A stretch of 64,000 bases of DNA, from assembly GCA_018780035.1 (NCBI GenBank), contig JADMKE010000003.1, positions 146,753 to 210,752 of the forward strand, written 5' to 3'. The position numbers were made by a program, and so were the translations under genes. The notes under the pieces were generated by a model. The model was not told the origin of the DNA, did not search any database, and was given only the letters and a program-made list of their open reading frames with translations. How positions within the stretch are numbered: the first letter of the stretch is position 1; every line of letters starts with the position of its first letter. This document shows, piece after piece, positions 4,561 through 61,968 of the stretch. The DNA comes from Candidatus Sericytochromatia bacterium (lineage in GTDB: Bacteria; Cyanobacteriota; Sericytochromatia; UBA7694).

Positions 4561-4746
4561 GCCGCGTGTCTCCGCTTCTGAGGGTAATTTAAGTCGTTAA
4601 GAAAATTATGGCACAGCTGGCGTCTGATCTTGCGCAACCAAACACAGGATTGGTTTAAATTTAGTTTAGGCTTCGGTCTTTTTCGGCCCCAAAAAAATTC
4701 GCTGTTCTGATTTTATACCCAACTACAGGACTTTCTTAACACATGC

Positions 4747-6195: not shown

Positions 6196-6313
6196 AGGGC
6201 CACTCCCGCTTTTTTCTTCAGGATACGCAAGACTGCCTCAATTGGGAAGATCCGGTGATTGAGTTCAAGACGCAGTTGCTCATCTATGTTCAGGTTTATG
6301 TACAGGTTTATGT

Positions 6314-9300: not shown

Positions 9301-10057
9301 CCGCTTTGGGATCTTGTCCAATACCCGCCACTGTCGCGTCAAAAGCGTTATTGGCCTGCTCTCCAACCCAATTCCAAGCCTGAGAAAGGCCTTTTGTGAT
9401 CAGATCCGGTGTTTGATCCAAACGAGGCGCAACGAGCCCCGGCTGGGGTTGAGAACCATACTCCAAAAACAGGCGGCCTTGATCACTGCGCAAATCTGCG
9501 ATATGAAAGCCACCCACGCGAATTTGATGGTGACCAGCAACTCCTTCTTTTCCGGGGACATAGGTCACTTCTGCTTTGTGTTTGCCAAAAGGCAAGACAT
9601 CAACCACCCCCTGAGCGATCTGTTGGACAAAATCATGGGAGAGGGTGACCTCGACTTTTTTAATGGAACCTGTCAGGTCGTCAAGACTGCGCTGTTCAAA
9701 TCCGTTTTTGTCAGTGAGCTGCAGACCCTCAACCCGAACCTGAACCGGGGCTGCTTTGCCTTTGGGCGGTTCGGGAGCACTGTCTTCAAAGAAGAGCAAA
9801 ACCGACTCACTTTTACCGGATTTCAGCTGCTGCAGCGTTGCCAGGGCATCTTGACTGCCTGTTTTGCCTGTTTTGCCTGTTAGGCTATCTGCCATCCACT
9901 TTTCAAATTGGGCTTCAGTGGCTTTGGGATTTTCTTTTTGATAGGCCTGTTGGAGGGTCTGCACTTCCTGGCGGGTCAGCCGTTTATCTGCAATCAAAGT
10001 CTGGAAAGTCTGCCGAGATGACGAAATTTGAGTCACAAAATCCTCCACGGATAGCAT
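6314..10057 (-). CDS. large (1247 aa) hypothetical protein with internal ~75-aa repeats
   Basis: Long uninterrupted ORF. Internal repeats LTPKGITPGRSGLTIQTVKDLLGKLTPAEWQKVA...QPNYLLYMRKYFQDQGM and LTPHGLSAGKTGLSYETVRGIMAKVTDAEWRALA...QPNYLDYLRDYFQKNGM. No signal peptide and no known catalytic motif recognised. Confidence 0.5.
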   Translation of the reverse strand: MLSVEDFVTQISSSRQTFQTLIADKRLTRQEVQTLQQAYQKENPKATEAQFEKWMADSLTGKTGKTGSQDALATLQQLKSGKSESVLLFFEDSAPEPPKGKAAPVQVRVEGLQLTDKNGFEQRSLDDLTGSIKKVEVTLSHDFVQQIAQGVVDVLPFGKHKAEVTYVPGKEGVAGHHQIRVGGFHIADLRSDQGRLFLEYGSQPQPGLVAPRLDQTPDLITKGLSQAWNWVGEQANNAFDATVAGIGQDPKAVRQSISDTVDSAVDWSRDKAADGLAWAVGLKPEDMRKIFENGKLQVDAGSGIQSEIDLDWDSERNRVYINPGNLSLNGKDLAGEGSVLEGSRVTLTPEKPQLEILPDGRVRIASENAGLSGGTGPESPAADVPDMTITRPADAPPDNLTLDRAEAEIRSDGQSTSLEVTEAEGTIQAAGVLTDERIQNLKKQIDDALVAVDKKLAEYGIDRASLEKIFSQVPTDLLKSLLSSTNQGELAKTAANLGIDPTQLGQFVAFLQEQPVQGLLGDLQKLTGTLASNTQLQGSLSFKLGRLNLESSSKGLLMQLQGLDLKALISSQTPSGTQTEASVSAQLASGALSNAENAPPQISTGQAKLALDATVREAKSPFESRLKAFVQDLNGRSNPKAYLTPKGITPGRSGLTIQTVKDLLGKLTPAEWQKVASGDDKSVQSLAAEKNLQPNYLLYMRKYFQDQGMNAPEQSKVTATAGLQAFSHSASETKFEKPEAALRVSTSANGQVTSEAGASLSAAEVKLNPNEAAIQAAAKLMGFRIEMAQKPAKELLTPHGLSAGKTGLSYETVRGIMAKVTDAEWRALAKMEPAARSTFSQRKGIQPNYLDYLRDYFQKNGMLPAAAVASEVRLEADAKVRRSDGTTSSQISAEATRVSASPEMIAAQGIEAQGKLDTPGADVAVKFNQGTLGASAERIMASGQLGPATVTTENGNFTVNQGQIWGAATPDAGLAVDAKADWSLDTRGEKARTQLSGDTHLAIGEGELQGSETTQLGGTSRIKSDELMRLAKNHPDLQAFLKLLGNQFRLNNESVTVALKDSSLITGDKGKVNYDLQLGVQKVETSLGPMDVQVRASNQGVRGNVTFSPNQMAVAWINGLVSEALKKPTQTALNQGRIEVKFDHSVVSDIVIGARITGDQVEIKVDQAKLFGFLDLDFIRGSARDTVLEQLKKMGITRASAKGETTVTLPVQALMAQALGPEAAGRTTLKPTLGSDNRLRVAFDYRP

Positions 10058-14163: not shown

Positions 14164-15168
14164 TTAGACCTTAAATCGGGATTCTTCAATGCTCGCAGGA
14201 AATTCCAACGTGGGCAAAGTCAAGCGGAAGTAAGGTTCTTTGCTGCCTGCCTCGTTGTACATTTCCCAGAGCACAATCCCGTAGGTCTGTGGATCATAGC
14301 CAATATGCTCATGGGTCACGCGGCTGTCCATGGTATTGGTGCCGGAAGTGGTCAATTTTAGAATCTGGATCTTTTTGCCATTTAAGGTGGTCGCCCCAAT
14401 CAGCTCGGCGTCATAACCAGACGACATGCGGCGAACCACACCAAAGAAATCGGTGTCATCCAAGGGATACCCATTATTGGAGACCACGCGCTCATCTTTT
14501 TTGTCCAATTCAGTGGTGACAAAGCTCAAATTACCACCGGGGCGGATTTTGATTTTGCTGCCGACGCCCGAGTTATACAACACCTTGGCTCCAGAGGCAC
14601 CCGAAGAGGAGAAAGAAACTTCAATTTTGACCGTATTGGGTTGTTTTGTATACATGCTCAATTTATTGGTCGTGACTTTGCCCGTCTTGAGATTTTTCTC
14701 AATTTTTTCAACCGAGGCCTGAATAAAAGGGGCTGACTTGACTTTGTCGAGCAATTTTTTGAGCTCTTGAGCCCCGCGCTCTTTGGCGGTCAGCTTGGGT
14801 GGGGTTGTGGTCGCAGGTTTGGCGGGGGTCGTTGTGCCCGTTGTTGGCTTGGGGGTTGTTGTCCCTGTTGTGGGTTTTGTGGGCGTGCCTGTACTGGGTT
14901 TGGTTGGGGTGCTGGGTACGGGCAAATCGTCGTCTGCTGCACGCAATTCCAAGGCATCGATCTTTGTTTTAATATCTTCAAGACCCTCCATGATTTTGGG
15001 CAGGGTATCTAAAAGTTTTTGTGTTGTGGCATCGATCGTGCTAGATGTTTGCAACGAAGGAGAAAGGTCTGTGGGATCTTCTTTGCTGCCGCAACCCGGT
15101 AAAAGCACCGAGGCTGAGAGCATTGATGCTGTCAAAATGCGGAACAGTACAGGGCGAAGGGTCATCAT
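14164..15168 (-). CDS. lipoprotein, paralog A (Thr/Pro-rich linker plus ~200-aa C-terminal domain)
   Basis: Lipobox LLPGCGS. Linker TPTKPSTGTPTKPTTGTTTPKPTTGTTTPAKPATTTPP. The C-terminal domain is about 50% identical to the next gene. Confidence 0.6.
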   Translation of the reverse strand: MMTLRPVLFRILTASMLSASVLLPGCGSKEDPTDLSPSLQTSSTIDATTQKLLDTLPKIMEGLEDIKTKIDALELRAADDDLPVPSTPTKPSTGTPTKPTTGTTTPKPTTGTTTPAKPATTTPPKLTAKERGAQELKKLLDKVKSAPFIQASVEKIEKNLKTGKVTTNKLSMYTKQPNTVKIEVSFSSSGASGAKVLYNSGVGSKIKIRPGGNLSFVTTELDKKDERVVSNNGYPLDDTDFFGVVRRMSSGYDAELIGATTLNGKKIQILKLTTSGTNTMDSRVTHEHIGYDPQTYGIVLWEMYNEAGSKEPYFRLTLPTLEFPASIEESRFKV

Positions 15169-15283
15169 GACTTCGTCTTTTACTCCCCAGAATTATTAAT
15201 AATAGGTTATCTTAAGTTAATTATAGTTTAAGGTAATAGAAGCTTGCTTCAAATCTTGAGAAAAATTTGTAACTGCTTATATT

Positions 15284-16285
15284 CTAAAGCTTGAAGGTGC
15301 TTTCTGGCAAAGAGTCGAGGTACTCAATGCTGGGCAACACAATTCGGAAAAAGGGCTCTTTGCCACCACTTTTATCATACATCTCCATCATGCGAATGGC
15401 ATAGGTCTGGGGATCATAGCCAATATGTTCATAGGCAATTTGGGCATTTAAGCTGTGGGTGCCATTGGGCACGACCTTGAGAATATTCACTTTACTGCCA
15501 GCCACGGTGGCAGTGCCAAGCAAAGTGGCTTTATAACCCGACGACAGGCGTTTGGTGGCACCAAAGAAATCGGTGTCATCCAGCGGGAATTTATTCACAG
15601 AAATCAGGCGTTCATCCGTTTTGTCGAGGTCGGTGACGACAAAACTCAGGGCCCCTTGGGGACGGACCTTGACTTTGTTGCCCACCCCAGAGGTATAGAG
15701 AATTTTGGTTCCGGGGGGGCTTTTGCTCGATTGCAAAACTTCAATTTTGACTGTATTGGGCTGGCGGGTTGAGAGTTTGAGCTTATTGGTAACGGTGCTG
15801 CCATTTTGCAGGTGTTTTTCGATTTTTTCAATGGTACATTGAACCGCTCCCGCAGAGGTAAAGGTGCTCAGAACCTTCATCAATTCTGCTTGGCCTTTTT
15901 CAGCTGCACTGGGGGCCGCTGGTTTGGCGGGTGCTTTGGCAGGAGCGGTTGATGTTGTTGGCTTGCTGGGGGTGCGTGGCGGCGTGGTCGTCGGTTTGGT
16001 GCCTGAAGCCGCTGGGGTCACTGTGGGAGCCGAGGGTTGGGTTGTTGCTGCCACGGGTTGAACTTCCAGGGCTACAATTCGGGCCTTGATATCGTCAATC
16101 CCGGCCATAATTTTGGGCAGGCTGGCCAAAATCTGCTCGGTTTGAGCATTGTTGGCAGGGGTTAAGGCTGCAGATTGGGTTAAAGGGGCGCTTGGCAACT
16201 CTTCAGAGCCTGTGCCACAGGCACTCAAAATCAAGCTGCTTGCTAAAAAAACGGAACTGATCCGGGGCCAAATGGATGAACGCAT
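15284..16285 (-). CDS. lipoprotein, paralog B (tandem duplicate of previous gene)
   Basis: Lipobox LILSACGT. Shares with paralog A the LPKIM-GI-DIKA-I-ALE helix, a T/P/A-rich linker and the C-terminal domain (GYDPQTY, PLDDTDFFG, KEP-FR--LP). Confidence 0.6.
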   Translation of the reverse strand: MRSSIWPRISSVFLASSLILSACGTGSEELPSAPLTQSAALTPANNAQTEQILASLPKIMAGIDDIKARIVALEVQPVAATTQPSAPTVTPAASGTKPTTTPPRTPSKPTTSTAPAKAPAKPAAPSAAEKGQAELMKVLSTFTSAGAVQCTIEKIEKHLQNGSTVTNKLKLSTRQPNTVKIEVLQSSKSPPGTKILYTSGVGNKVKVRPQGALSFVVTDLDKTDERLISVNKFPLDDTDFFGATKRLSSGYKATLLGTATVAGSKVNILKVVPNGTHSLNAQIAYEHIGYDPQTYAIRMMEMYDKSGGKEPFFRIVLPSIEYLDSLPESTFKL

Positions 16286-16398
16286 ACTCTCTACTCTCCA
16301 GGGCCTGAGCTTCAGGCTTTTGATACAAGTCTTATCCCTGTTTGGGATTGCAAACTTGCAAGAGAAATATTAAATTAAATCAAAGACAAGGATAAATA

Positions 16399-51762: not shown

Positions 51763-52968
51763 TGTGGCACTCCTTTTGGCGCGGCGTTTGAGCGAGCGGG
51801 AAAGTGAAAAGCCAAATTGCAGGAGCAGGCCGAGGGTCACCAAAATACAGGAGATATAGGGAATCAACCAACTGGGGTTTTTGACTACCTGTAAGACAGT
51901 GCCCGACTCATCGGGTTTGTAAGAGGCCTGGTAAAAGGTATCTCCCCGGTAGCGCAAGGGGTGGTTCATCCAAATTTTCACTTCGCGGTCGACTTTGTGT
52001 TCGGTATCGACAATCCGCACCGTGCTTTCAAAGTTTTTGGGGATTTCCGTGCCGGGATAGCGGTCAAAGCGGAAATCTTTGAGGTAAAAGGTATAGGGTT
52101 TGTAACTGCGTTCAAAGCGCAGATTGAGAGCATATTTTTTGCCGTTGACTTCGATGTCATTGCTGCTTTTGAGCCACACCGAGGTGGTATAACTGCCCAG
52201 GGCCTTGTCGCTGCCTTTGGGAAAGAGCGTGACCAGGGCTGTGGGCATGTCGATGCCGCCTTCTGCCGATTGGGTTCCACTGATCTCGGGGGCCTGTTTG
52301 GCTTTAAATCCAGCCCCCGAGGGATCTTTTTCCAAGACAGAATTTTTGTAATAGGCATCTACCTGAATATCCACGGGCAGTTGCGGCGATTGTATCCGTT
52401 TGCCACTGCGCAATTGGCTCTCGGGCACCACCGTGACCAAATCCGTTTTGGCATCGCTGCTATCAACAAAGGCCAATTCCGGGTGACGAATGTCTTCGCT
52501 GTAGTTGGCAGAGCCGCCTTCGTCGATTGTCATATTGCTCTCGTCGGCATAAAGGCCGGTTAAACCTTCTCCCACCAAGAGGAGAATCAGGCCTGCGTGA
52601 ATCACGGAGAGACCAATTTTTTGTTTGCTGAGCTTAAAGCGCTGAGCATGGGCCACCATTAAATTGATCAAAAGCAATGAGCCCAGGGTATTTCCGCCGG
52701 GAAAAGGCAGGGCACCTGGTACGGCACGGTCGCGGGGAAAGAAAATCTGAAAATCGACCCAGACCAGCCAAGAGCGAAAATAGTCTTTGACCACGGTCCA
52801 GATACCCTGATCCATCTGGGCCAAAGTGCCAAAGAAGATCAGCAAAATACTCAGCGTCAGCAGGGTGACAGTCAGTTCGAGTGAACCAAAGAAAGCCAAC
52901 AACTGCTGCAGGGGCGTTTTGGGCTTGCGTTTTTTTTCGGCCAAGGGAGCGGCAGGTGCATCAATCAT
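51760..52968 (-). CDS. ccsB: cytochrome c biogenesis protein CcsB/ResB
   Basis: N-terminal TM segments and a large periplasmic domain. RYRGDTFYQASY is ResB-like. Adjacent to and translationally coupled with ccsA. Confidence 0.7.
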
Positions 52969-54200
52969 GTGGCTTGCCTCTGATTGGGGGAAGTGTCATG
53001 AAAGGCGAGCGACTTCACAAAGGCCAGAAAGTCGTTCTCTTGGCTTTGAATCAATTTGGCCGGGGCGACCATTTTAATGAACCAGGTTTGACCTCCCTGT
53101 TCGACCATGGCAATCAACATGCCTTGGCCCTCCATGCCACTGTAAAGCGCCATAAAATAGCCTTTGTGACCGGCAATTTGAATGTCTTTGACGGCGTTTT
53201 TGAGGCCCGCTTGATCGGTGGGCACCATTTCAAGCTGCTTGCGCCAGCGGTTGGTATTGTTGAGCAGACCGCCGCCATCACCGGCCAAACTGACGATCGA
53301 AACATCGCCAATCGCTTCGCCCTGTTTGACCTCAAACGAGGCCACACGGATATTGCCTGCAGGTTTTTCTTTCCAGCTGGCGGGCAGGGTATAGGTGAGT
53401 TTTGTGTTGGTGGCCTGGGGTTCCATTTTGGGTAAACCTGGCGCGTTCATGTCTGAATTGGGATCTGAATTGGGTGCCGAATTGGGAGCAACCGGCGGCT
53501 GACCAGGCATGGCCTGTCCCTCAGGCATTGCGGGCATTTGGGCTGAGGCACCTGCTTTAATTTTGACAGAGGCCAGAAAGGTCTCAAAGGCTTTGGCCTG
53601 GGCCTTGACCAATTCACGTGGGCCTGCCAGTTTAAAGAACCAATTGGCGCCTTCTTTTTCGACCAGCACCACGCGCATGGCTTTGTCGGGTTGGCCTTCG
53701 GGGGCATAGAGTTCGAGGGCAATGCCTTCACTGTCAGAAACTTTAAAAGCCCTGACACTTTTGGCAATCTCAGCGGGATCTTCCAGCGGAGGCAGGCCCA
53801 CTTGGCCGCGCCAGCGGTTAAGATTGCCTTTGAGATCGCCGGCATTGCCTGGCAGGGTGACCAGCGAGAAATCCCCCCCGCCTTTGAGGCTGAATGAGAG
53901 TTTGCGCATACCACCTGCGGGCATTTTTTGCCAATCGGCAGGGGCCGTATAACTCAGACCTTCCTCTGCAGAGGCATCAACTGAGGCATTTGAAAGCGCC
54001 AGGGCGGGGGCTGCTGAAACTTTTGCAACCCGGTATTGTTTGACTTCTTCGGGGGCGCAAGCGACAAAAGTGAGCAATATGAGGCCGAGAGGAAGCCAGG
54101 AAGAGCGCTGTAAAGCGTTATTCAAAGACCGCTTGAGAGAGCGCTTGGACTTAAACAAGATAATGTGCATATTTTCAATCTGTGGGCGTCTGGATTTCAA
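52965..54200 (-). CDS. lipoprotein with two ~130-aa tandem repeats (NRWR motif)
   Basis: Lipobox LLTFVACAP. Repeats LSYTAPADWQKMPAGGMRKLSF...NLNRWRGQVGLPP... and LTYTLPASWKEKPAGNIRVASF...NTNRWRKQLEMVP... Confidence 0.5.
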   Translation of the reverse strand: MKSRRPQIENMHIILFKSKRSLKRSLNNALQRSSWLPLGLILLTFVACAPEEVKQYRVAKVSAAPALALSNASVDASAEEGLSYTAPADWQKMPAGGMRKLSFSLKGGGDFSLVTLPGNAGDLKGNLNRWRGQVGLPPLEDPAEIAKSVRAFKVSDSEGIALELYAPEGQPDKAMRVVLVEKEGANWFFKLAGPRELVKAQAKAFETFLASVKIKAGASAQMPAMPEGQAMPGQPPVAPNSAPNSDPNSDMNAPGLPKMEPQATNTKLTYTLPASWKEKPAGNIRVASFEVKQGEAIGDVSIVSLAGDGGGLLNNTNRWRKQLEMVPTDQAGLKNAVKDIQIAGHKGYFMALYSGMEGQGMLIAMVEQGGQTWFIKMVAPAKLIQSQENDFLAFVKSLAFHDTSPNQRQAT

Positions 54201-54322
54201 TTCGGACAGTTGCTTCTATTGGGAATAAGCTGTCTGGAACCAGGCCCAGGGCGTACCACTACCTATGGTACCCAAGTGTATGACCTCAAGCCAAGTAGGT
54301 CAGGAGGGAGAGCCTGTCATCT

Positions 54323-55039
54323 TTACAATTTTTCAAGGGATGTGAGCCAAAGATTAAAATAATGACATTTTTCTCTGAGTGCAGATAAACCAATATCTTG
54401 GGCAATCATGGCTCCCGTAGGTTTTCTGTAGGTTTTAATTTGTTCGATGATTCTGGATGCTGGCCCGTTTTCATGATTGATTTTTTCGGGATCGCCTTGA
54501 GCAGATTGTAAGGCTTGTTCGAGCCGCTCTAATTGCAGATCGCCACACACCACCGGATAATGGAATCGGAGATAGCTGAGATCTACAAAAATCAAAGCCT
54601 CAAATTCATGTAATTGAAAATAAGGAAGTAGTCGATCTACTCTTGGGACCTCAGGCTGAAGATCTTCTTTCATTTTTTGAGCCAGAATGGTTAAGCCATT
54701 TTCAAAATGAGATGTTTTTATTTCTCTCATGGCCTCTGCATAACCAGGAAAACTTTTTTCTGGCTCAGTTGAGGATGGCATGTGATAGATGTCGAACATC
54801 GTCGTAAAAAAACAATTCGTATCCTTATGTTCATTCATCAAACGAACGAGATGTTCCCGCGCCTTTCTGTAATCAGTTAAACCACCTTTTTTGTCAGGAC
54901 CTTGTCGTAGACGTTTGGTTACAATGCATTGAACTGAGGAATTTACCGCATATTGATAGAGATGCGGTTTAATCACATCATTGGCAAATTGTTCTTCTGT
55001 GGGCCCTTCTGCCAGAATATGTAGACGTTTCCAAGTCAT
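54323..55039 (-). CDS. DUF4276/TOPRIM-like protein, partner of upstream ATPase
   Basis: 238 aa, N-terminal LHILAEGPTEEQF (Toprim-like EG-TE acidic motif). The ATG overlaps the stop of the 1738-aa gene (ATGA). Low GC like its partner. Confidence 0.5.
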   Translation of the reverse strand: MTWKRLHILAEGPTEEQFANDVIKPHLYQYAVNSSVQCIVTKRLRQGPDKKGGLTDYRKAREHLVRLMNEHKDTNCFFTTMFDIYHMPSSTEPEKSFPGYAEAMREIKTSHFENGLTILAQKMKEDLQPEVPRVDRLLPYFQLHEFEALIFVDLSYLRFHYPVVCGDLQLERLEQALQSAQGDPEKINHENGPASRIIEQIKTYRKPTGAMIAQDIGLSALREKCHYFNLWLTSLEKL

Positions 55040-58000
55040 GGCTTACCCCCCAGCACATTCTTGTTCCAGAGTTCACTGAGTGTATAGTCTTTTAACCACA
55101 GCGCCAATTCTTCAGAATTTTTACGGGTCATCACAGTAAAGGCTTTGTCTTTCATCTCATTGGCCTGTAGATCAAAACGGGTACGATCCACAATCACGAG
55201 ATCATCCGCTTCGAAATGGTCTAATAACTCACTGGATTGGGTGGCGATTAAAATTTGGCAATGTTGCGAAGCCAAACTGATCATATTGGCTAAGGTTGCC
55301 AAAGCCTTTGGGTGAAGTCCCAGTTCTGGCTCATCGAGAATTAAGATCCGTGGCAAGCGGTGAGGAGGAGACATCAAGAGTGCGGTGAGCACCATAAAAC
55401 GCAATGAGCCATCTGAAGCCTGATGGGCTCCAAAGATGTATTCAGAACCCTCTTCTCGCCATTGAAGTTGAATTTTGGCATCTTCAAAATTAGGTTCAAG
55501 CACAAATTCTTGAAATTGAGGAAAGGCATGACGAATCAGACGAATCATCTGTTTGTAATGAGTTTCCTCTTCTGGTGAATTTTTTAGGGCATAGAGAAAG
55601 GCCGCTAAATTTTTTCCATCTGAGGCCAATTGTTTATTATCATAAAGGTTAGCTTCATCTCTGAGTTTGCTGGAAAGAGATGTATCTGGGATATGAATAC
55701 GTTCCAATGAGCCTAACAATTCGCGCAACATTTTTGCCCATGGTTGTGTTGCATGGGTAAAAAGAACCGAGTCGGATTGTGGTTTCTGACTTTCATACAG
55801 AATTGAGTTTTGGTCCAATAAAGACAAAGTAATGCGTTCAGACTCAAAGTAAAAATATTTAAAATCTTCAGTTAGTTTGCATTGAAAATTGTAAGAAAGG
55901 CTTTCTTGCTCACTTTTGCTAAAAATCAAACTGCCACTCAGGGAATCGGTATTTTTAATGCCATAATAAAGAAAATCGCTAATTGAACCCTTTGTTACAT
56001 TTAAACTGTCCATTGGCCATTGAGAGAATTCTTGAACAAATTCTAAAAATTTAAAGAAGCTGCTTTTCCCTGCTCCGTTGGCACCAATCAAAACATTAAT
56101 ATCTTGTAGATCAATGCTGATACTTTGATGATTCGAAAAGGATTTAAAGCCTTGAATGGAAACTTCACTCAGAAAAAAGTCAGTAATTTGAACATTTTTT
56201 AAAAAGTCAATAACGGCAGGAAACACTTCAGGTTTGTAGGTATCTTGATAATCAAGCTTTGATAAATTTTTAACACTTTCATATTTACTTGTATTTCTCA
56301 AATTCAAAAAATAATCAATGTCAGTTGAATTTTTCTCCCAAGAGCAAAGAACCATAGAAATTTTAACCAAGGCTAACTCAATCTTTTCTATATAATCAGA
56401 GTCAGGACTATAATACGTCCTATATTTGTCTAATATTTGAGAGTAAAATTTTTGAAAAAGAGATGATTTTAAAGCTTCTTCTTGTCTGTAATACACCAAC
56501 CAGTATGACATCAACTCTAAAGAAGTATGTAAAAGTGGTTCTTGTTGAAGAAGAATTTTACTTAGAAGAGTTGACCAATAATCTGTAAAATTCTCAAAAT
56601 CGTGTTCCAACAACATCTCTCTTAAATGAGAAATACCTTCTTGGACTGTATTTGGGTTATCGGAAGTTAAATCAAAATGTCGTCCTGAAGAAGGGGCATG
56701 TTCTTGAATTCCAGCCATAATTTCCTCTTTTAAAGTTCGGTAGTCTGGATCCATTTTAAGGATATCAGCATAGTCATCTAAAAAATAATTCATTTCTTTG
56801 AGCAGTGAAAAATCAAGTCCACTCATAAAAATGAACCGAGTCGATAGTTGGGTTTGAGAAGGAGCAAAAGGGCTTTGTTTGAATTCCTGAATAGAAGCTT
56901 TTAAAGCTTGATACAACTCTAAAATCTCTGTTTGGTTGAATCGCAGTCCTTGGGGAAAGGTATATTGTTTGTATTTGTATTCATGTAATTTTAATGAACC
57001 CTCACCAAAATGATGTTTAGCCCAACCACCTTTATTTTTTTCAATCCCTGTTGACCAAATACTTCTACCATTTTCAACAATTAATTTATGTACATTTTTT
57101 CTTGCTTCAGGATAAGCAGAAGTATACAAAACCAATAAGGCAAAGGTACTTCTGAAGAAGCTAGGAAAGTCTGTGTAAAATTGAATATGAGACGCTATTT
57201 TTTCTTTGTGTAAGCTATTTAAGAACCTATCCTCAATCAATCTTAATTTTGCAAAAGCATAATAAGCTATTTTTAAATCAGATGTTTTATCCACCAAATC
57301 ATTGACTCTGGCTATTAATCGCTCATTTAAAGGAATGGATTTATAAAGGGCATTTTTAGTGATTTCATATAAAAGCTGGGGCCTTATATAATAATCCGCA
57401 TCCAAATCCCCATCTGTTTCTAATAAAACATACAAACATTCTTCGAGTTGAACGGGGTCAGTGATCCGCGATAGCGAATTTTTAATTATGAAAAAAGGAC
57501 CTTGTTTGGATTGAGAATACAGTACATTTCTATGTTCTATATGATTAAATGTAGTCCAAATATCCCAAAAAAATTCATTCCAAAATGTTTCAGGTATCTG
57601 CAGAATAAACTCAGATAACACAGCGACAATCAGCATCAACAAGCGATTATCTTCACCACGGAGGTGTTTATAAATTGAAAGAGTCAAAGAAAATATTTTC
57701 TCATTAATGCTCTCATTGTTGTAAACAAATAAACCCTTATGTAGTTGAGTTCTAACCCATTCTGCATCTATTTCATTGACAGTTAAATATCTCAAAAGAT
57801 AGAAAAAAGAGAATTGGAGATATTCCTTAAATAAATAAAGATTCACCCGATACCAGGTTTCATGAGAAATCAATTGAAGTCTAAAAACCTGTGGCATAAA
57901 TCCCAATTGAAACAATAAAAGCATTGCATTCAAGGAAGCATTGCGTCTGGTAACGTGAATATCTTGTCCGCTTAAAAAGATACGAACCTGATTGAAATAA

Positions 58001-60252
58001 GGATTATTTTTCTCGATATCTGGAATGATATTTTTTTCCAGATAAGTTTGAAATGTTTCAAACCCCTGGAGATTTAATTCTTTCTTTTTTTCTCCGCCAA
58101 TGTAGGCAATTGGATCATAATAGTGTCTGAAGGACTTTTCAATAAAATCATAGCCCTCAAAAAAGTACATTTGTTCCTGAAAAGGCCATTTATCCGCTTG
58201 GGAGAGTACTGAATCTAAAAAATCAAACCCCTCTTGATAATTTCGCTTAAACAATGTGGTATTTAAAAAGGCTTTTTTAATGCACCATTCAGCATCAATC
58301 CAGTCATCTTCTTCTGGTTTCCATTGTTCTAAGTGCTCTTTGAGTGATTCAATTTTTTGATCTAAAGCAAATTTAATAGCTTTGTAATATTGAATTTGAT
58401 TATATATCGAAGCTAATTTTTCATGTTTAATTAATGAAAGATCATTAACTGCATTTTCAACTCTTTTGATCCACTCAGAAAAAAGCGCTTCATTTTCCAA
58501 GAACAGGCTATCTTCAATTAAGAGAAAAGCAAAATAGAACCAATCTAATCTGTTTTCTGGATTAGTTTTTGACAGTTCTATTCCTTTTAAGTCATCTGAC
58601 AAACCCATGAGGTCAATTTGAGGATCTTGTTTTAAAACTTCAGACAAATGAGAAAATGAATCTTGAACAGCAAGAGCCAACATTGCCAACATTTGCAGTT
58701 TTTCATTTGCAGATTGACAATTCGGGTATTTTTTTACAAAAATCCAACGATAAAAAAAATTCGCATAATAATGGCTCACTGACGAAGGCACACGGTTAAA
58801 TGATTTGAGAGCTCTTAGCTGAAGATAATCCTGAGATAATTCTTCAATTGATAATTGTTGATTGGTTTCAGGGGTTCCCCACTTTCTCCAGATAGATTCA
58901 TAAGCATCTCGCTTGCGCAGCTCCAGTTTATAAAGATAGCTGGGGTCACGAGTCAATGTTTGTTTCAAGTCAACAATTTCTGGGGCATCACCATATTTTG
59001 CCAAATAACTTTTTAAGAAAAATGCTGCATAGAGATAAGAAAATCGCCTTTGTGCCCCTCCCTGCATCAGACAGTTGTTCTTTTCTACAGAAGACATAGT
59101 CTGGGAAATCTGATCCAAAGGTTTATTGCAAAAATTTAAGGCTGCACAGATTTGTTGAAAGTGATACTGTTTGCGTAAGTCTGCTGAAAGGCTATTTTTT
59201 GTGGCTAAAAAAGTCGTAAAAGATGAACGCAAAGCTTGAATCTTCATCAGAAGTGACAAATACTCAGATTCAAGCCCCTTTTTTTGATTCAAGTCAGACA
59301 ATTCAAAATTGCCAAGGTCACTCAGCCAGCCAAGATATTGCACCCAGTCTTTTTCTGCCTCTTGCTGGGCCAATGCAGATTGCAGCAATAAACTCACCTC
59401 AAGATAGGCCTGGTCATAAAACAAAACCTGCTTTGAAGCCGAGAGGCCTGCATCAATCAGGCAAATATCTTGGGCATTCCCATTTTTAAGCACAGCAAAA
59501 ATATTACCAGCATGAAGATCGCCGTGTATATCACCTTGATAGACCCGACTGAGTTTGAGGTTTTGGGCTTCCCGTGCATAATAATAAGGATCTGGCAAAT
59601 CAACACTTGCCCAGCGAAAGGTCGGCTTTTTCCAAGAGACTTGGAAATGGTCTTGAACAAAGGTGTAAATGCGTCCGTGTTTGGGATGCAGACGATAACC
59701 CAAAATACCTTCACAAAGGGAGGGAAAAGAAACATCTCTAAGATAAGACTGTGCATCAAGAGAAAAAGCATCTACCAGGCGTTGCCCCACACATTTTAAA
59801 GCGGCTGAAAATTCGGTTTGTGTGAGTTGATTCAGTTGCTTCATTTCATGGAGCGGTTGCTGGTCATGCGCACGTTGCCAAAAGGTGCAAGTGTAATTTT
59901 GCAATTCTCCAGTTTCGCTTGAAACCGTTAGAGTGGTGCTCCAAACCAATTTTGCAAACAGGGCTTGAATCTGGTTCAGATGTTGGTAACGCTCTTCTTC
60001 AGAAATATAATCTGGCCAAGGACTCTGGGTGCTGATTTTTAAAACAGTGCGCCCTTCGATTTTGGAAACCCCCAAAAAACTTTCAACCTCAAGTACTTCA
60101 GCGCCAGATTTGCCCTCTTGAAAGCTTTGAACGACCCGCAAATTCTCCAGGTCTTCAGAGCTGATTTCAGATTGGTTTAATAAGCGTTGAATTAATGCAG
60201 GCTTGAGTTGGTCAAATAAAGATTCCACAAAACACCCTGAGAAAAAGGTCAT
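55036..60252 (-). CDS. giant multidomain protein: N-terminal APH/protein-kinase-like phosphotransferase domain, ~1000-aa helical region, C-terminal OLD/AAA_21-type ABC ATPase
   Basis: aa 240-275 IHGDLHAGNIFAVLKNGNAQDICLIDAGLS reproduce the APH catalytic loop (HGDLHxGN) and the Mg-binding (I)DxG. The C-terminal 370 aa carry Walker A VLIGANGAGKSSF, signature-like HQASDGSLRF, Walker B/D-loop RILILDEPELGLHP and H-loop QILIATQSSE. The gene is about 36-40% GC against about 55% for the flanks. Confidence 0.7.
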   Translation of the reverse strand: MTFFSGCFVESLFDQLKPALIQRLLNQSEISSEDLENLRVVQSFQEGKSGAEVLEVESFLGVSKIEGRTVLKISTQSPWPDYISEEERYQHLNQIQALFAKLVWSTTLTVSSETGELQNYTCTFWQRAHDQQPLHEMKQLNQLTQTEFSAALKCVGQRLVDAFSLDAQSYLRDVSFPSLCEGILGYRLHPKHGRIYTFVQDHFQVSWKKPTFRWASVDLPDPYYYAREAQNLKLSRVYQGDIHGDLHAGNIFAVLKNGNAQDICLIDAGLSASKQVLFYDQAYLEVSLLLQSALAQQEAEKDWVQYLGWLSDLGNFELSDLNQKKGLESEYLSLLMKIQALRSSFTTFLATKNSLSADLRKQYHFQQICAALNFCNKPLDQISQTMSSVEKNNCLMQGGAQRRFSYLYAAFFLKSYLAKYGDAPEIVDLKQTLTRDPSYLYKLELRKRDAYESIWRKWGTPETNQQLSIEELSQDYLQLRALKSFNRVPSSVSHYYANFFYRWIFVKKYPNCQSANEKLQMLAMLALAVQDSFSHLSEVLKQDPQIDLMGLSDDLKGIELSKTNPENRLDWFYFAFLLIEDSLFLENEALFSEWIKRVENAVNDLSLIKHEKLASIYNQIQYYKAIKFALDQKIESLKEHLEQWKPEEDDWIDAEWCIKKAFLNTTLFKRNYQEGFDFLDSVLSQADKWPFQEQMYFFEGYDFIEKSFRHYYDPIAYIGGEKKKELNLQGFETFQTYLEKNIIPDIEKNNPYFNQVRIFLSGQDIHVTRRNASLNAMLLLFQLGFMPQVFRLQLISHETWYRVNLYLFKEYLQFSFFYLLRYLTVNEIDAEWVRTQLHKGLFVYNNESINEKIFSLTLSIYKHLRGEDNRLLMLIVAVLSEFILQIPETFWNEFFWDIWTTFNHIEHRNVLYSQSKQGPFFIIKNSLSRITDPVQLEECLYVLLETDGDLDADYYIRPQLLYEITKNALYKSIPLNERLIARVNDLVDKTSDLKIAYYAFAKLRLIEDRFLNSLHKEKIASHIQFYTDFPSFFRSTFALLVLYTSAYPEARKNVHKLIVENGRSIWSTGIEKNKGGWAKHHFGEGSLKLHEYKYKQYTFPQGLRFNQTEILELYQALKASIQEFKQSPFAPSQTQLSTRFIFMSGLDFSLLKEMNYFLDDYADILKMDPDYRTLKEEIMAGIQEHAPSSGRHFDLTSDNPNTVQEGISHLREMLLEHDFENFTDYWSTLLSKILLQQEPLLHTSLELMSYWLVYYRQEEALKSSLFQKFYSQILDKYRTYYSPDSDYIEKIELALVKISMVLCSWEKNSTDIDYFLNLRNTSKYESVKNLSKLDYQDTYKPEVFPAVIDFLKNVQITDFFLSEVSIQGFKSFSNHQSISIDLQDINVLIGANGAGKSSFFKFLEFVQEFSQWPMDSLNVTKGSISDFLYYGIKNTDSLSGSLIFSKSEQESLSYNFQCKLTEDFKYFYFESERITLSLLDQNSILYESQKPQSDSVLFTHATQPWAKMLRELLGSLERIHIPDTSLSSKLRDEANLYDNKQLASDGKNLAAFLYALKNSPEEETHYKQMIRLIRHAFPQFQEFVLEPNFEDAKIQLQWREEGSEYIFGAHQASDGSLRFMVLTALLMSPPHRLPRILILDEPELGLHPKALATLANMISLASQHCQILIATQSSELLDHFEADDLVIVDRTRFDLQANEMKDKAFTVMTRKNSEELALWLKDYTLSELWNKNVLGGKP

Positions 60253-60345
60253 TCAATATGCAAACAGGAATAAAATCTACACAGTTATTGTAACCCAACC
60301 TACCTAGAGCAAATGAGAAAGCCAGGCATCATTATGAGATCTGAC

Positions 60346-61968
60346 TCAAGGAGTGAGAGCCCCCCAGCCCCCGCCGCCCGGTGTCTCGACCCGCACCCGA
60401 TCCCCTGACTTCAATTCCAATTGCACCTTGCCCGGCAGGGGAGTCTCTTGGCCCCTCTGAATCAGGGTATTGACTCCCAAACCACCGGCTTCACCGCCAT
60501 TAAGACCATAAGGCGCCAAGATCCGCCGCTCAGTTAAAAGGGTCACGGAGGCCGGTGAGAGCATTTCCAACTCGCGTACCAGACCCTCGCCGCCGGGAAA
60601 TTGCCCCGCTCCACCAGAATTGCTGCGCAGGCAATAGCGCCAAACGCGAAAGGGAAAAGCCAATTCCAGAGCTTCAATCGGCGTGTTGAGGGTATTGGTC
60701 ATGTGGCTGTGCTGGCCCGAAATCCCCGCACCCAGGGGACCACCGCCGTGGCCTCCGCCCATGGTTTCGTAATAGGCAAAAGGCTGATCGCCTGCGCTGC
60801 CGCCAATGATTAAATTATTCATCGAGCCACAGCTGGCAGCGGGAATCAGCTCTGGCAAAGCCTGGGCCAGGGCCCCCAACAGGACATCCACCAGACGCTG
60901 TGAAGTTTCGACATTGCCCCCCACCACCGCTGAGGGAAAGCGGGCATTGACCAAAGATCCGAACGGGGCAATGACCTCAATCGGCTCCAGACAGCCGCTG
61001 TTGGAGGGCACTTCATTGTCGAGCAGGCATCGAAAGACATAAAAGACCGCAGAGAGGGTGACCGCCAGAATCGTGTTCACACAGCCCCGGCTTTGGGGAG
61101 CCGTGCCGCTAAAGTCCACTTTGGCATTTTCACCTTGAACAGTGAGTGTGACGGCAATGACCAAGGGGCCTGCTCCTTGCCCATCGTCTTCGAGGGCATC
61201 GGCAAAAGCATAGACCCCATCTGGGATTTTTGCAATCACGGCCCGCATCATGCGGGCGGCATAGGCCTGCAGCGCTACACCCTGTTGGCTTACCATTTCT
61301 GGGCCCACGCTTTGGCACAATGCAATCAGGCGCTTGCTGCCAATTTGGTTGGCGGCGTGTTGGGCCAGCAGATCCCCTTCGCGTTCGAGTGGGGTGCGCA
61401 CATTGTTGAGAATCAAGGCCAATAAATCTGCATCGACCTGTCCCCTTTTGCGCCACTTGAGCGGTGGAATGCGCAGCCCCTCCTGAAAGATTTCACGCGA
61501 AAGTGGCATTGAGCCCGGCGTCATTCCTCCCACATCGGCATGGTGGGCCCGGTTGGCGACATAAAAACGCGGGCTGCTTTCGCCGTCTAAAAAGACCGCT
61601 TCGACCATGGTGATATCTGGCAAGTGGGTGCCCCCTGCAAAGGGATCATTGAGCAAGACACTGTCGCCGGGTTCAAAGTGCAGGGCCTGGATCGCAGCCT
61701 GCACAGACAGAGGCATGGAGCCCAAATGTACTGGCAAATGTTCGGCCTGGGCCAATAATTGGCCTTGGGCATCAAAGAGCGCACAGGAAAAATCTTTGCG
61801 CTCTTTGATATTCGAGCTGTAGGCGCTGCGACAAAGGGCCGCGCCCATTTCCTCGGCCATGGCGCGAAAACGGTGTTTAAAGATTTCAAGTTGGACGGGA
61901 TCTACTGTGGCATTCATCGATCTTGCTCCAGACAGAGATGGCCCATGGCATGAAGACGGGCTCGCCAA
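60346..61968 (-). CDS. hyuB: hydantoinase B/oxoprolinase family protein
   Basis: 540 aa with the Hydantoinase_B architecture. Confidence 0.75.
   Translation of the reverse strand: MASPSSCHGPSLSGARSMNATVDPVQLEIFKHRFRAMAEEMGAALCRSAYSSNIKERKDFSCALFDAQGQLLAQAEHLPVHLGSMPLSVQAAIQALHFEPGDSVLLNDPFAGGTHLPDITMVEAVFLDGESSPRFYVANRAHHADVGGMTPGSMPLSREIFQEGLRIPPLKWRKRGQVDADLLALILNNVRTPLEREGDLLAQHAANQIGSKRLIALCQSVGPEMVSQQGVALQAYAARMMRAVIAKIPDGVYAFADALEDDGQGAGPLVIAVTLTVQGENAKVDFSGTAPQSRGCVNTILAVTLSAVFYVFRCLLDNEVPSNSGCLEPIEVIAPFGSLVNARFPSAVVGGNVETSQRLVDVLLGALAQALPELIPAASCGSMNNLIIGGSAGDQPFAYYETMGGGHGGGPLGAGISGQHSHMTNTLNTPIEALELAFPFRVWRYCLRSNSGGAGQFPGGEGLVRELEMLSPASVTLLTERRILAPYGLNGGEAGGLGVNTLIQRGQETPLPGKVQLELKSGDRVRVETPGGGGWGALTP

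Follow-up and report, generated by a model that had tools for sequence, protein, structure and literature searches.

HEC-01, listed by PADLOC as 'Hma-embedded candidate 01', consists of adjacent, co-directional HEC-01A and HEC-01B genes; HEC-01B and DUF4276 proteins keep the Toprim metal site (PMC12065111, bioRxiv 10.1101/2024.01.29.577857), and HEC-01 gave no protection in E. coli against the phages tested (bioRxiv 10.1101/2024.01.29.577857). In PARIS, an ABC ATPase holds a Toprim nuclease and releases it on trigger binding (PMC11464382). An ABC ATPase is also combined with a DUF4276 Toprim effector in MADS (Mad3/Mad4) and in the NsnB/NsnC-DUF4276 variants of Menshen (PMC12065111). The non-SIR2 region of B. 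subtilis DSR2 binds the phage tail tube protein and DSAD1, and binding of the tail tube protein activates the effector at the N-terminus (PMC10981675, PMC11850899). Protein kinases are effector domains in NTP-dependent conflict systems, and the vWA-MoxR-VMAP ternary systems are described in the same source (PMC7159879); a figure legend in PMC10910872 describes TCAD9 as associated with these ternary systems.

The window, a 64-kb stretch of DNA from a Candidatus Sericytochromatia lineage, was compared with contigs from relatives (L001, L002, L008 and L088–L091). GC content was 0.372 in positions 54201–60345 and 0.513 across the remaining window, which places the island at z = -12.9 relative to comparison windows of 6145 bp (mean 0.507, sd 0.010, minimum 0.489). 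In 400-bp windows, GC fell to 0.29–0.33 within 55.8–58.8 kb, with 0.50–0.59 on either side, and no comparable dip was present elsewhere within the 64 kb. The largest GC steps, at about 54100–54150 and 60340–60360, coincided with the two intergenic gaps. Codon usage agreed, GC3 being 0.32 in both island genes and 0.51–0.62 in 12 other genes of the window. The features of the locus, with coordinates and strand, are as follows.

52965–54200 (-): probable lipoprotein gene, right flank, whose signal peptide ends in a lipobox-like LTFVAC
54201–54314 (-): ancestral hyuB–lipoprotein intergenic region kept at the right junction, matching the L088 empty site nearly base for base
54315–60345 (-): indel of ~6.03 kb, carried by the window, L001, L002 and L090/L091, with its left end in L008, and missing from L088/L089
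54323–55039 (-): DUF4276 gene, 238 aa, HEC-01B, predicted Toprim-type nuclease; its start overlaps the stop of the giant gene (ATGA)
55036–60252 (-): giant gene, an intact ORF of 1738 aa, with kinase-like domain, alpha-solenoid and ABC ATPase (Pfam and PADLOC matches)
55039–56175 (-): C-terminal ABC ATPase, aa 1360–1738, a complete HEC-01A unit (PADLOC and Pfam)
55760–59200 (-): allelic replacement segment, aa ~350–1497, ~3.4 kb; type A shared by the window and L001, type B by L090 and L002
56278–58935 (-): all-alpha solenoid module of ~880 aa, aa ~440–1325, homologous to the part of Dsr2-like proteins that follows SIR2
58963–60252 (-): N-terminal TCAD9 protein-kinase-like domain, aa ~1–430 (Pfam TCAD9)
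60253–60345 (-): hyuB–giant gene intergenic region of 93 nt, presumed promoter and leader (conservation)
60346–61968 (-): hyuB (hydantoinase B/oxoprolinase), left flank (Pfam Hydantoinase_B, E 6.9e-203)

The original prediction of a low-GC island of about 6 kb, holding two genes and bounded by the intergenic gaps beside hyuB and a lipoprotein gene, was borne out by these data, and the two genes overlap by 4 nt; only its flanking GC of 55–65% was too high, the measured range being 50–59%. Its report of no integrase, tRNA or obvious direct repeats also held: no tRNA was found within the 64-kb window, the Pfam scan returned no integrase or transposase domain inside or adjoining the island, and no direct repeat common to the two junctions had statistical support. 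The lipoprotein gene, with no Pfam match and no CXXCH motif, heads a ResB/CcsA-like cluster with ResB and Cytochrom_C_asm genes downstream (Pfam). Upstream of the giant-gene ATG, about 70 nt hardly varied among the window, L001, L002 and L008, whereas the adjoining 3′-end of hyuB differed by 10–20% across the same set. This 93-nt region, which presumably serves as promoter and leader of the cassette, gave no Rfam match, no unusual RNA folding (z 0.39) and no consensus sigma-70 promoter call on the minus strand.

The Pfam TCAD9 model matched the giant protein with 57.1 bits (cut-off 40, E 2.4e-15), and the kinase-like motifs G47/S49, L71-K72, H243-G-D-L-H-x-G-N250 and I266-D-x-G-L270 were invariant in 7–8 homologs. 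A weak PDB profile match (E 0.23) aligned IHGDL..N..IDxGLS to a Ser/Thr kinase. Two AF2 models were built from 7-sequence alignments and were of low to moderate confidence (pLDDT 70 and 58.6); when the kinase-domain model (pLDDT 58.6) was searched with Foldseek, each of the top 50 matches was a protein kinase or a choline kinase (best E 1.9e-3). As judged from these motifs, the TCAD9 domain looks catalytically intact. At the other end of the protein, the PADLOC model HEC-01A (PDLC04175) matched the ATPase over positions 6–362 of 363 (E 4.5e-103), with further Pfam matches to AAA_21 (E 2.8e-27), SMC_N and AAA_15. The Walker A (GANGxGKS), signature (QxS(D/E)GxLRF) and Walker B (LDEPE) motifs were invariant, and the catalytic motifs of both kinase and ATPase were kept across homologs of about 35% identity. 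The 238-aa protein matched Pfam DUF4276 (E 4.4e-36) and PADLOC HEC-01B (E 2.4e-51), with E11, E15, E16, D83, H144, E145 and E147 invariant; it is a predicted Toprim-type nuclease, the Toprim assignment being taken from the literature on the family. In 7 of 7 homologous loci, from several phyla, the DUF4276 gene lay directly downstream of the giant gene, with a 4-nt overlap or a 3-nt gap.

The solenoid aligned with the non-SIR2 part of SIR2 proteins of ~1300 aa (hhalign probability 100%, E 5.9e-77). All four scanned solenoid relatives of ~1200–1340 aa contained SIR2_2 and matched the PADLOC Dsr2 model, and protein P0132 matched that model over its full length (E 1e-35). The central module is all-helical, and its fold matches are solenoids. 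The PADLOC Dsr2 model gave no direct match on the solenoid of the window, and the solved B. subtilis DSR2 was neither retrieved by sequence nor found among the top fold matches; the putative link to the characterised DSR2 sensor runs via intermediate sequences only. Protein P0128 represents a stand-alone kinase and solenoid protein (E 3.5e-148) without the ATPase, a layout that parallels the SIR2 and solenoid architecture. Many other TCAD9 matches were proteins of 1000–1500 aa.

The cassette resembles HEC-01 in its adjacent, co-directional gene pair, and its C-terminal 378 aa correspond to a full-length HEC-01A; however, HEC-01A models span 262–464 positions, whereas here a kinase-like domain and a solenoid precede the ATPase in a protein of 1738 aa. 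With PARIS it shares an AAA_15/21-type ABC ATPase and a small Toprim-superfamily effector (PADLOC AriA on the ATPase, E 2.1e-26), but the AriB partner is a DUF4435 protein, with no AriB match here, and AriA is a protein of ~55 kDa without kinase or solenoid, the ATPase assembly itself sensing the trigger. PADLOC mad3 (E 5e-25) and NsnB (E 2e-21) matched the ATPase domain far more weakly than HEC-01A did, and the cassette, unlike MADS and Menshen, includes neither a methyltransferase nor a ParB-DUF262 protein (NsnA). With DSR2 and Dsr2-like proteins it has in common an alpha-solenoid placed C-terminal to an enzymatic domain, with homology over the whole non-SIR2 region; the cassette, in contrast, has a kinase-like domain in place of SIR2, an ABC ATPase after the module and a separate nuclease gene. 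Fusion of a kinase-like domain to an NTPase and helical repeats also occurs in TCAD9 conflict-system proteins, for example P0007 with TCAD9, STAND NTPase and TPR repeats, but these have STAND or MoxR NTPases instead of an ABC ATPase, and no vWA, MoxR or VMAP genes were found near the cassette. On the favoured reading, the cassette belongs with the PADLOC candidate HEC-01 and, by analogy, with PARIS, OLD and Gabija. The best explanation is that the ATPase subunit gained ~1350 extra N-terminal residues, a TCAD9 domain followed by the alpha-solenoid.

Full-length homologs of the giant protein are very rare: six were found among 5.8 billion proteins, and in a set of 1.84 billion representatives the full fusion accounted for four clusters at 50% identity. 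The kinase and solenoid extension on a HEC-01A-type ATPase was absent from all plasmid, phage and viral records searched. Plasmid tblastn matches were confined to the ATPase part, the targets being ATPase genes of ~360 aa; those listed came from Nostoc, Scytonema, Aeromonas and Piscirickettsia, with an annotated DUF4276 neighbour in one listed record (H2). An obvious defence island was found at one homologous locus only (L003), where the surroundings included DarT/DarG, an MmeI-type R-M enzyme, an SNF2 gene, PLD, MZB and helicase genes, and a WYL regulator. Cassette GC was 10–20 points below that of the flanks in L001–L005. Low GC is a lasting trait of the gene family, whatever the host, and does not mark recent entry.

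The cassette occupied exactly the same site in five more contigs from relatives (L001, L002, L008, L090 and L091), among them a lineage with flanking DNA only 82–86% identical, and it was low in GC in all measurable cases. In L088 the lipoprotein gene directly follows hyuB, and the same junction was present in a second sample, L089. L088:2618–2787 aligned to the right junction, from ~10–23 nt past the DUF4276 stop through the lipoprotein gene (z = 55), and divergence of this empty site from the occupied alleles starts at the hyuB stop. The right-junction intergenic region was conserved in L001 and L002 as well. On the basis of the flanks, the relationships are ((window, L001), (L090, L088)), then L002. 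Since the empty L088 is nearest to the occupied L090, loss is the simplest account of the empty site, with the cassette long established at the locus; it was probably lost in the L088/L089 lineage. The best explanation is that the shared ancestor of the Sericytochromatia lineages sampled already had the cassette here, and that one of them later lost it. Of the original prediction, the accessory, compositionally foreign character of the insert stands, while low GC is no sign of recent arrival; between the old and the non-canonical insertion that it offered, the old one is better supported. Its proposed synteny comparison gave both outcomes, hyuB and the lipoprotein gene being adjacent in L088 and L089 and separated by the cassette in the five occupied contigs, none of which showed the genes at genome-typical GC where this could be measured.

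Between the window and L090, nucleotide identity was ~0.91 down to 59267 and 0.93 again from 55704, whereas from ~59100 to ~55800 it was 0.47–0.70, apart from a single 90-nt bin with 0.40 and a few that reached 0.80. The transitions were abrupt (~100–200 nt), and GC within the island is lowest over the replaced segment. At the protein level, the window (type A) and L090 (type B) were 28% identical over aa 420–1140 and 90–92% at the ends. A centre of ~28% between ends of ~90% points to recombinational module swapping.

The reading that we favour, with a probability of about 0.62, takes the island for a two-gene immune cassette on the chromosome, belonging to the ABC-ATPase and Toprim-nuclease class, with a solenoid sensor, old at its site, lost once and with its module swapped. 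Recent horizontal acquisition by an unrecognised, non-canonical integration, the leading idea of the original prediction, would account for the strong composition contrast, the sharp borders and the empty site in close relatives. It could also draw on a marginal ~39-nt similarity of the two window junctions (64% identity, z 2.7), but L002 (z 0.3) and L090 (z 1.0) failed to show it. Between the window and L001 the cassette was closer than the flanks (0.96–0.98 and 0.84–0.93 identity), which indicates some recent lateral movement between relatives; in general, however, identities of the N-terminal and C-terminal parts and of DUF4276 track the flank relationships. The shared insertion point and junctions in the five contigs, the 82–86% lineage included, the grouping of the empty genome with an occupied one, the lack of integrase, transposase and tRNA, and searches that found no relatives in viral contigs and none beyond the ATPase domain in plasmids or phages make recent entry improbable.

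Variable presence among close relatives argues against a housekeeping role, and extreme central divergence with conserved catalytic ends, the pattern expected of an arms-race recognition surface, argues against both a selfish addiction or toxin-antitoxin-like module and a cellular role in DNA repair or stress-kinase signalling, kept by post-segregational killing or housekeeping. Such functions are suggested by the Pfam label of AAA_21 ('putative AbiEii toxin, Type IV TA system'), by the lack of phage protection by HEC-01 when tested, by the action of SMC_N/RecF-type ATPases with Toprim partners also in DNA metabolism, and by the long retention of the cassette in the lineage. We nevertheless regard them as unlikely, given that Dsr2-like defence proteins have a homologous module, that one homolog lies inside a defence island, and that the family is patchy and very rare across phyla. 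That types A and B arose by very fast divergence in place, under diversifying selection only, with low GC due to relaxed or AT-biased mutation, is highly improbable. The two types do share length, solenoid family and equally low GC, and even the window and L001 differ in patches (nucleotide identity 0.858 at 55760–56549); yet the window and L090 are ~10% apart in flanks and gene ends and 28% identical in protein over 720 aa, central nucleotide identity is near the level of unrelated sequences, and the A–B distance is as wide as that to homologs in other phyla (28–36%). The sharing of type B (82%) by L090 and L002, which is more distant, contradicts the flank relationships, and the abruptness of the transitions likewise speaks for replacement.

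On the favoured reading of an immune cassette, the predicted function is anti-phage defence, with the solenoid proposed as the trigger-binding sensor. A phage-encoded protein would be bound by the solenoid, and binding would shift the fused ABC ATPase to another ATP-dependent state; the ATPase might then release or activate the co-translated DUF4276 Toprim nuclease to cut nucleic acid, RNA or DNA. The kinase-like domain, standing in the place of the SIR2 NADase effector of Dsr2-like proteins, could be a second effector or a phospho-switch. The original prediction named neither this content of a predicted defence system nor the most informative feature of the island, which is the replacement of the central ~3.4 kb of the giant gene between close relatives. 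This replacement points to exchange of the recognition module by homologous recombination within the conserved kinase- and ATPase-coding ends, giving two deeply divergent alleles in close relatives.

The low-GC island between hyuB and the lipoprotein gene is real and has sharp edges, as the original prediction had claimed. Positions 54201-60345 have a GC percentage of 37.2, against 51.3 in the remaining window (z = -12.9 relative to 481 other 6145-bp windows, with mean 50.7%, sd 1.0 and minimum 48.9%). In 400-bp windows GC fell to 29-33% at 55.8-58.8 kb with 50-59% on both sides, and the steepest local changes, at ca. 54.10-54.15 kb and 60.34-60.36 kb, coincided with the two intergenic gaps. 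The GC3 value was 0.32 for both island genes and 0.51-0.62 for twelve other genes. The island comprises two genes:

55036-60252, minus strand: giant gene, 1738 aa
54323-55039, minus strand: DUF4276 gene, 238 aa; its ATG overlaps the TGA of the giant gene (4-nt overlap)

The small protein was identified as Pfam DUF4276 (E 4.4e-36) and as PADLOC HEC-01B (PDLC04188, E 2.4e-51), and matched nothing but DUF4276 in Pfam and HEC-01B models in PADLOC; a sequence profile search of DUF4276 against the PDB returned no significant match. The giant protein ends in a HEC-01A ABC ATPase of 378 residues (aa 1361-1738) that is complete (PDLC04175, E 4.5e-103, model positions 6-362 of 363) and also matched Pfam AAA_21 (E 2.8e-27); its Walker A, Walker B and ABC signature motifs show no variation. 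Like HEC-01, the cassette thus combines a HEC-01A-type ATPase with an adjoining HEC-01B/DUF4276 gene, whereas the ATPase of HEC-01 is a stand-alone protein of ca. 260-460 aa and the one in the cassette is extended by 1350 residues at its N-terminus, to 1738 aa. HEC-01 was found inside Hma systems and is a candidate for a defence system; its HEC-01B component has been reported to be Toprim-like and to conserve a metal site. In E. coli assays, the only published test, HEC-01 gave no protection (bioRxiv 10.1101/2024.01.29.577857). DUF4276 has been placed independently in the Toprim superfamily (PMC12065111). The AriA model matched the ATPase domain far more weakly than HEC-01A (E 2.1e-26), as is expected from the common AAA_21 core, and the partner gene differs from PARIS, in which the effector is AriB (DUF4435 Toprim); the cassette has DUF4276 and no AriB.

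The N-terminal ca. 430 residues matched Pfam TCAD9 with 57.1 bits against a cut-off of 40 (query aa 1-450), a family listed among kinase-like families (bioRxiv 10.64898/2026.09.18.752743). In a motif comparison of 7-8 homologs sharing only ca. 35-45% identity, K72 (beta3 Lys), HGDLHxGN at 243-250 (H243, D245, N250) and IDxGL at 266-270 (D267, G269) were invariant. By motif analogy these residues would correspond to the beta3 Lys, catalytic loop and metal-binding Asp of kinases, an assignment backed by a weak alignment to PDB 9x4g. For an AF2 model of low confidence (pLDDT 58.6), the top 50 Foldseek matches in the PDB were all kinases (best E 1.9e-3, TM scores below 0.3), and the kinase profile produced insignificant matches only against PDB sequences. 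No SIR2 domain was found in the giant protein in Pfam or PADLOC; where DSR2 and other defence-associated sirtuins have an N-terminal SIR2 NADase, the cassette protein has TCAD9 instead. The cassette also differs from the vWA-MoxR-VMAP ternary system, as vWA, MoxR and VMAP genes were found neither near it, where the neighbours are hyuA/hyuB and the lipoprotein/ResB/CcsA cluster, nor at the related loci.

Residues ca. 440-1325, the central alpha-solenoid module, had no direct match in Pfam or PADLOC. An exhaustive search of 1.84 billion cluster representatives with a profile of aa 160-1359, built from seven members of the family, retrieved four that are full-length (P0002, P0003, P0004, P0006). 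Dozens of proteins of ca. 1200-1340 aa matched only via the module, at their C-terminal ca. 850 aa, and all four of those scanned begin with Pfam SIR2_2 and match PADLOC Dsr2 (E 1e-26 to 1e-40); one of the four, P0132, matched Dsr2 over its entire length (E 1e-35). Alignment of the module (A1) to 17 members of the SIR2-type family gave an hhalign probability of 100% (E 5.9e-77, 818 columns). As judged from these profile comparisons, the central module is homologous to the non-catalytic helical (MID/CTD-type) region of Dsr2-like proteins as PADLOC defines them. In Bacillus subtilis DSR2, the N-terminal NADase is under the control of the non-SIR2 region, to which phage tail tube protein and also the inhibitor DSAD1 bind (PMC10981675, PMC11850899). 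Profile searches provided no direct sequence link between the module of the window and this solved protein, which was likewise missing from the 50-60 best fold matches listed for the module, and the module and SIR2-family profiles returned only SIR2-domain or insignificant matches in the PDB.

One further protein, P0128 (1290 aa, profile E 3.5e-148), has the kinase domain and the module and lacks the ATPase, and resembles a kinase-effector counterpart of the SIR2 and solenoid proteins. Its gene is located as follows:

L093:257-4129: P0128 gene, stand-alone, no ATPase or DUF4276 partner; adjoins a group II intron reverse transcriptase

Full-length relatives of the giant protein were rare. A word-indexed search of 5.8 billion proteins identified six, at 94, 55, 41, 38, 38 and 36% identity, and in all six, as well as in a seventh in L090, the DUF4276 gene follows directly downstream with a 4-nt overlap or a 3-nt gap. 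The homolog in a cyanobacterial MAG (L003) is flanked by DarT/DarG, an MmeI-type R-M enzyme, an SNF2 gene, PLD/MZB/helicase genes and a WYL regulator, which is a typical defence island. No relatives were found in a scan of viral contigs, and tblastn against phages and plasmids matched the ATPase domain only, with no N-terminal extension in any hit; the plasmid matches were ca. 360-aa genes, and in one listed record a DUF4276 gene is annotated adjacent. In the bioreactor homolog (L005:7808-10008 and L006:737-2994), a CbiA/ParA-like ATPase gene (336 aa) precedes the giant gene with an 8-nt overlap and an SLFN_AlbA_2 + HATPase_c_4 gene also lies upstream; both may be extra system components in that lineage.

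The state of the site in relatives was traced via lipoprotein-gene homologs, also labelled Sericytochromatia, since the hyuB scan of the species-representative genome set gave one close relative only (L008, an uncultured Candidatus Sericytochromatia MAG, 91%; next best 61%, in another phylum). The gene order hyuB-cassette-lipoprotein was present in L001, L002 and L090/L091, and the L008 contig stops 283 codons into the giant gene. With these five contigs occupied, two carry the empty site, so that hyuB does adjoin the lipoprotein gene elsewhere: in L088 the one directly follows the other with no trace of either cassette gene, and L089, from another sample, has the same empty-type junction at its contig start. 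The empty intergenic region and the right junction of the window align (z = 55), beginning a short distance past the DUF4276 stop. At the other end, divergence of the occupied and empty alleles begins at the hyuB stop codon; the last hyuB codons are wholly different (…GCTCTCACTCCTTGA in the occupied allele, 60346-60365, and …CAGATTTAAATCCTGA in the empty one, L088:2598-2617), which means that the indel boundary extends into the hyuB 3′-end. The more distant relative L092 was considered as a guide to the ancestral state and was uninformative, as it has no hyuAB beside the lipoprotein cluster.

The ca. 70 nt upstream of the giant-gene ATG and its first codons (60253-60345, first ca. 50 nt of the gene) are near-invariant in four lineages, in which the hyuB 3′-ends next to this leader vary by 10-20%. 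For the 93-nt leader 60253-60345 no Rfam match, consensus promoter or unusual RNA fold (z 0.39) was found. The counts from a sigma-70 and terminator scan equalled the shuffled expectation. The conserved leader may be a regulatory site or the outcome of recent homogenisation. On the other flank, the probable lipoprotein (52965-54200, minus strand) has a lipobox-like LTFVAC and two internal repeats of ca. 170 aa, with no Pfam domain and no haem-binding CXXCH; its gene heads a ResB/CcsA-like cluster, and its homologs, with 30-35% identity, are widely distributed. In L090, an additional 715-aa gene with a Pkinase domain (14196-16343, minus strand) separates the CcsA-like gene from the 307-aa gene; it is absent from the window, L001, L002 and L088, and represents a second indel in the neighbourhood.

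Of the traits of a canonical integrative island, the cassette shows deviant composition and presence/absence among close relatives, and mobility genes, a tRNA target and flanking direct repeats were not found. As had been predicted from the sequence, integrase, tRNA and flanking direct repeats are missing: the domain search detected no integrase or transposase in or beside the island, and the 64-kb window contains no tRNA and no match to an Rfam family. Exact and permissive local alignments gave no significant repeat common to both junctions (z 2.7 in the window, 0.3 in L002, 1.0 in L090), and because of these values an apparent left/right alignment obtained with MAFFT was not accepted as an att-like repeat. 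The marginal similarity in the window (60290-60330 and 54285-54325, 25/39 nt), not reproduced in L002 or L090, includes a short GGCT core just outside both cassette ends and may be a degenerate target duplication. The arms of a 21-nt inverted repeat (18/21 complementary) lie 5.85 kb apart, one around the start codon of the giant gene (60233-60253) and the other towards the 3′-end of the DUF4276 gene (54361-54381); lying in coding sequence on both sides and being no outlier among 105 inverted repeats of the AT-rich stretch, the repeat was dismissed as probably due to chance.

Low GC had been taken as a sign of arrival from outside; a recent, non-canonical insertion is disfavoured, as the same site is occupied in diverged lineages. 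Wherever both flanks of a host were available, the GC of the cassette was 10-20 points lower than that of the adjoining DNA, so genome-typical composition is not what relatives display, and low GC is therefore a property of the gene family that has not been ameliorated, and not a mark of recent entry. What stands of the insertion reading is that the cassette is foreign-looking, accessory and old. Nucleotide identity of hyuB, the lipoprotein gene, ResB and CcsA supported the flank relationships ((window, L001), (L090, L088)), then L002, with L092 outside. By flank identity (94-96%), the empty L088 is the closest relative of the occupied L090, and L002, the most distant lineage, is occupied. The N-terminal and C-terminal parts of the cassette and DUF4276 show the same order as the flanks. 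The simplest account is a single old gain and a subsequent loss, or else a presence/absence polymorphism that recombination in the flanks has moved.

The central part of the giant gene has a different history. Between the window and L090, protein identity was ca. 90% at aa 1-360 and 92% at aa 1501-1738, against 28% at aa 420-1140 and 58-60% at aa 1141-1500, while in the central part L090 shares 82% identity with L002, a more distant lineage. The two central alleles, type A (window and L001) and type B (L090, with the cassette at 3853-9849, and L002), are as distant from each other as either is from homologs in other phyla (28-36%). Nucleotide transitions are abrupt, at ca. 59.2 kb and ca. 55.76 kb, within conserved kinase-coding and ATPase-coding sequence, and the 3.4 kb replaced is the lowest-GC core of the island, type B being equally AT-rich. 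Pure in-place diversification of the segment is contradicted by these abrupt breakpoints and by a type A/B distribution that conflicts with the flank relationships, and 28% beside 90% identity is unattainable by divergence in place. Recombinational replacement is thus the best reading, with the central segment as the putative recognition module exchanged. Over 57.5-59.2 kb, identity between the window and L001 reaches 98.4%, against only 84-93% in the flanks; a second variable patch at 55760-56549 (aa ca. 1235-1497; 85.8%, with 95-98% in the rest of the gene) takes in the linker as well as the first half of the ATPase with the insert region. Together these values indicate that the cassette is still being shuffled among lineages. 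An addiction or cellular role may still apply but fits this allelic pattern poorly.

We consider the cassette to be an immune system, at a probability of roughly 0.6 for this reading with the following mechanism. The solenoid would bind a phage protein, trigger binding would, through the fused ABC ATPase, release or activate the DUF4276 nuclease, and the kinase-like domain would serve as a second effector or a switch. With the domain identities, motif conservation, gene coupling, module homology, accessory status and allele swapping established, we infer the trigger, targets and order of events from three analogies: the DSR2 sensor, the PARIS system, in which a Toprim nuclease is retained by an ABC ATPase until trigger binding sets it free (PMC11464382), and the kinases that act as effectors in NTP-dependent conflict systems (PMC7159879).

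An ABC-ATPase/Toprim defence pair is a known class; the fusion of a kinase and a Dsr2-like sensor, with a natural sensor-swap polymorphism, is unreported. Tentatively, the locus might represent an undescribed defence architecture, in which one Dsr2-type solenoid sensor would act on a kinase-like domain in cis and on a Toprim nuclease via the fused ABC ATPase. The sensor and the ATPase half next to it (N-terminal) would form an exchangeable cassette, swapped in natural populations by recombination within conserved catalytic ends, and so act as an allelic "specificity switch" similar in principle to module exchange in hsdS and polymorphic toxins; P0128 would be the kinase-effector counterpart of defence-associated sirtuins.

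A single polypeptide here joins three families so far treated apart, i.e. HEC-01/PARIS-type ATPase-Toprim pairs, Dsr2-type sensors and TCAD9 kinases, and points to the Dsr2-like helical region as a portable sensor able to drive various effectors (NADase, kinase, ATPase-gated nuclease). As HEC-01 is without a demonstrated function, a sensor-bearing version with two natural specificity alleles offers a concrete route to its triggers. The locus presents a clean natural replacement of a sensor module, with mapped breakpoints inside conserved domains and relatives' flanks 81-91% identical. For genome scanning it shows that an island of low GC with sharp edges is not necessarily a recent one, since low GC has here outlasted the divergence of the host lineages. 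Sericytochromatia are the non-photosynthetic sister group of Cyanobacteria, and this is among the few defence loci described from them.
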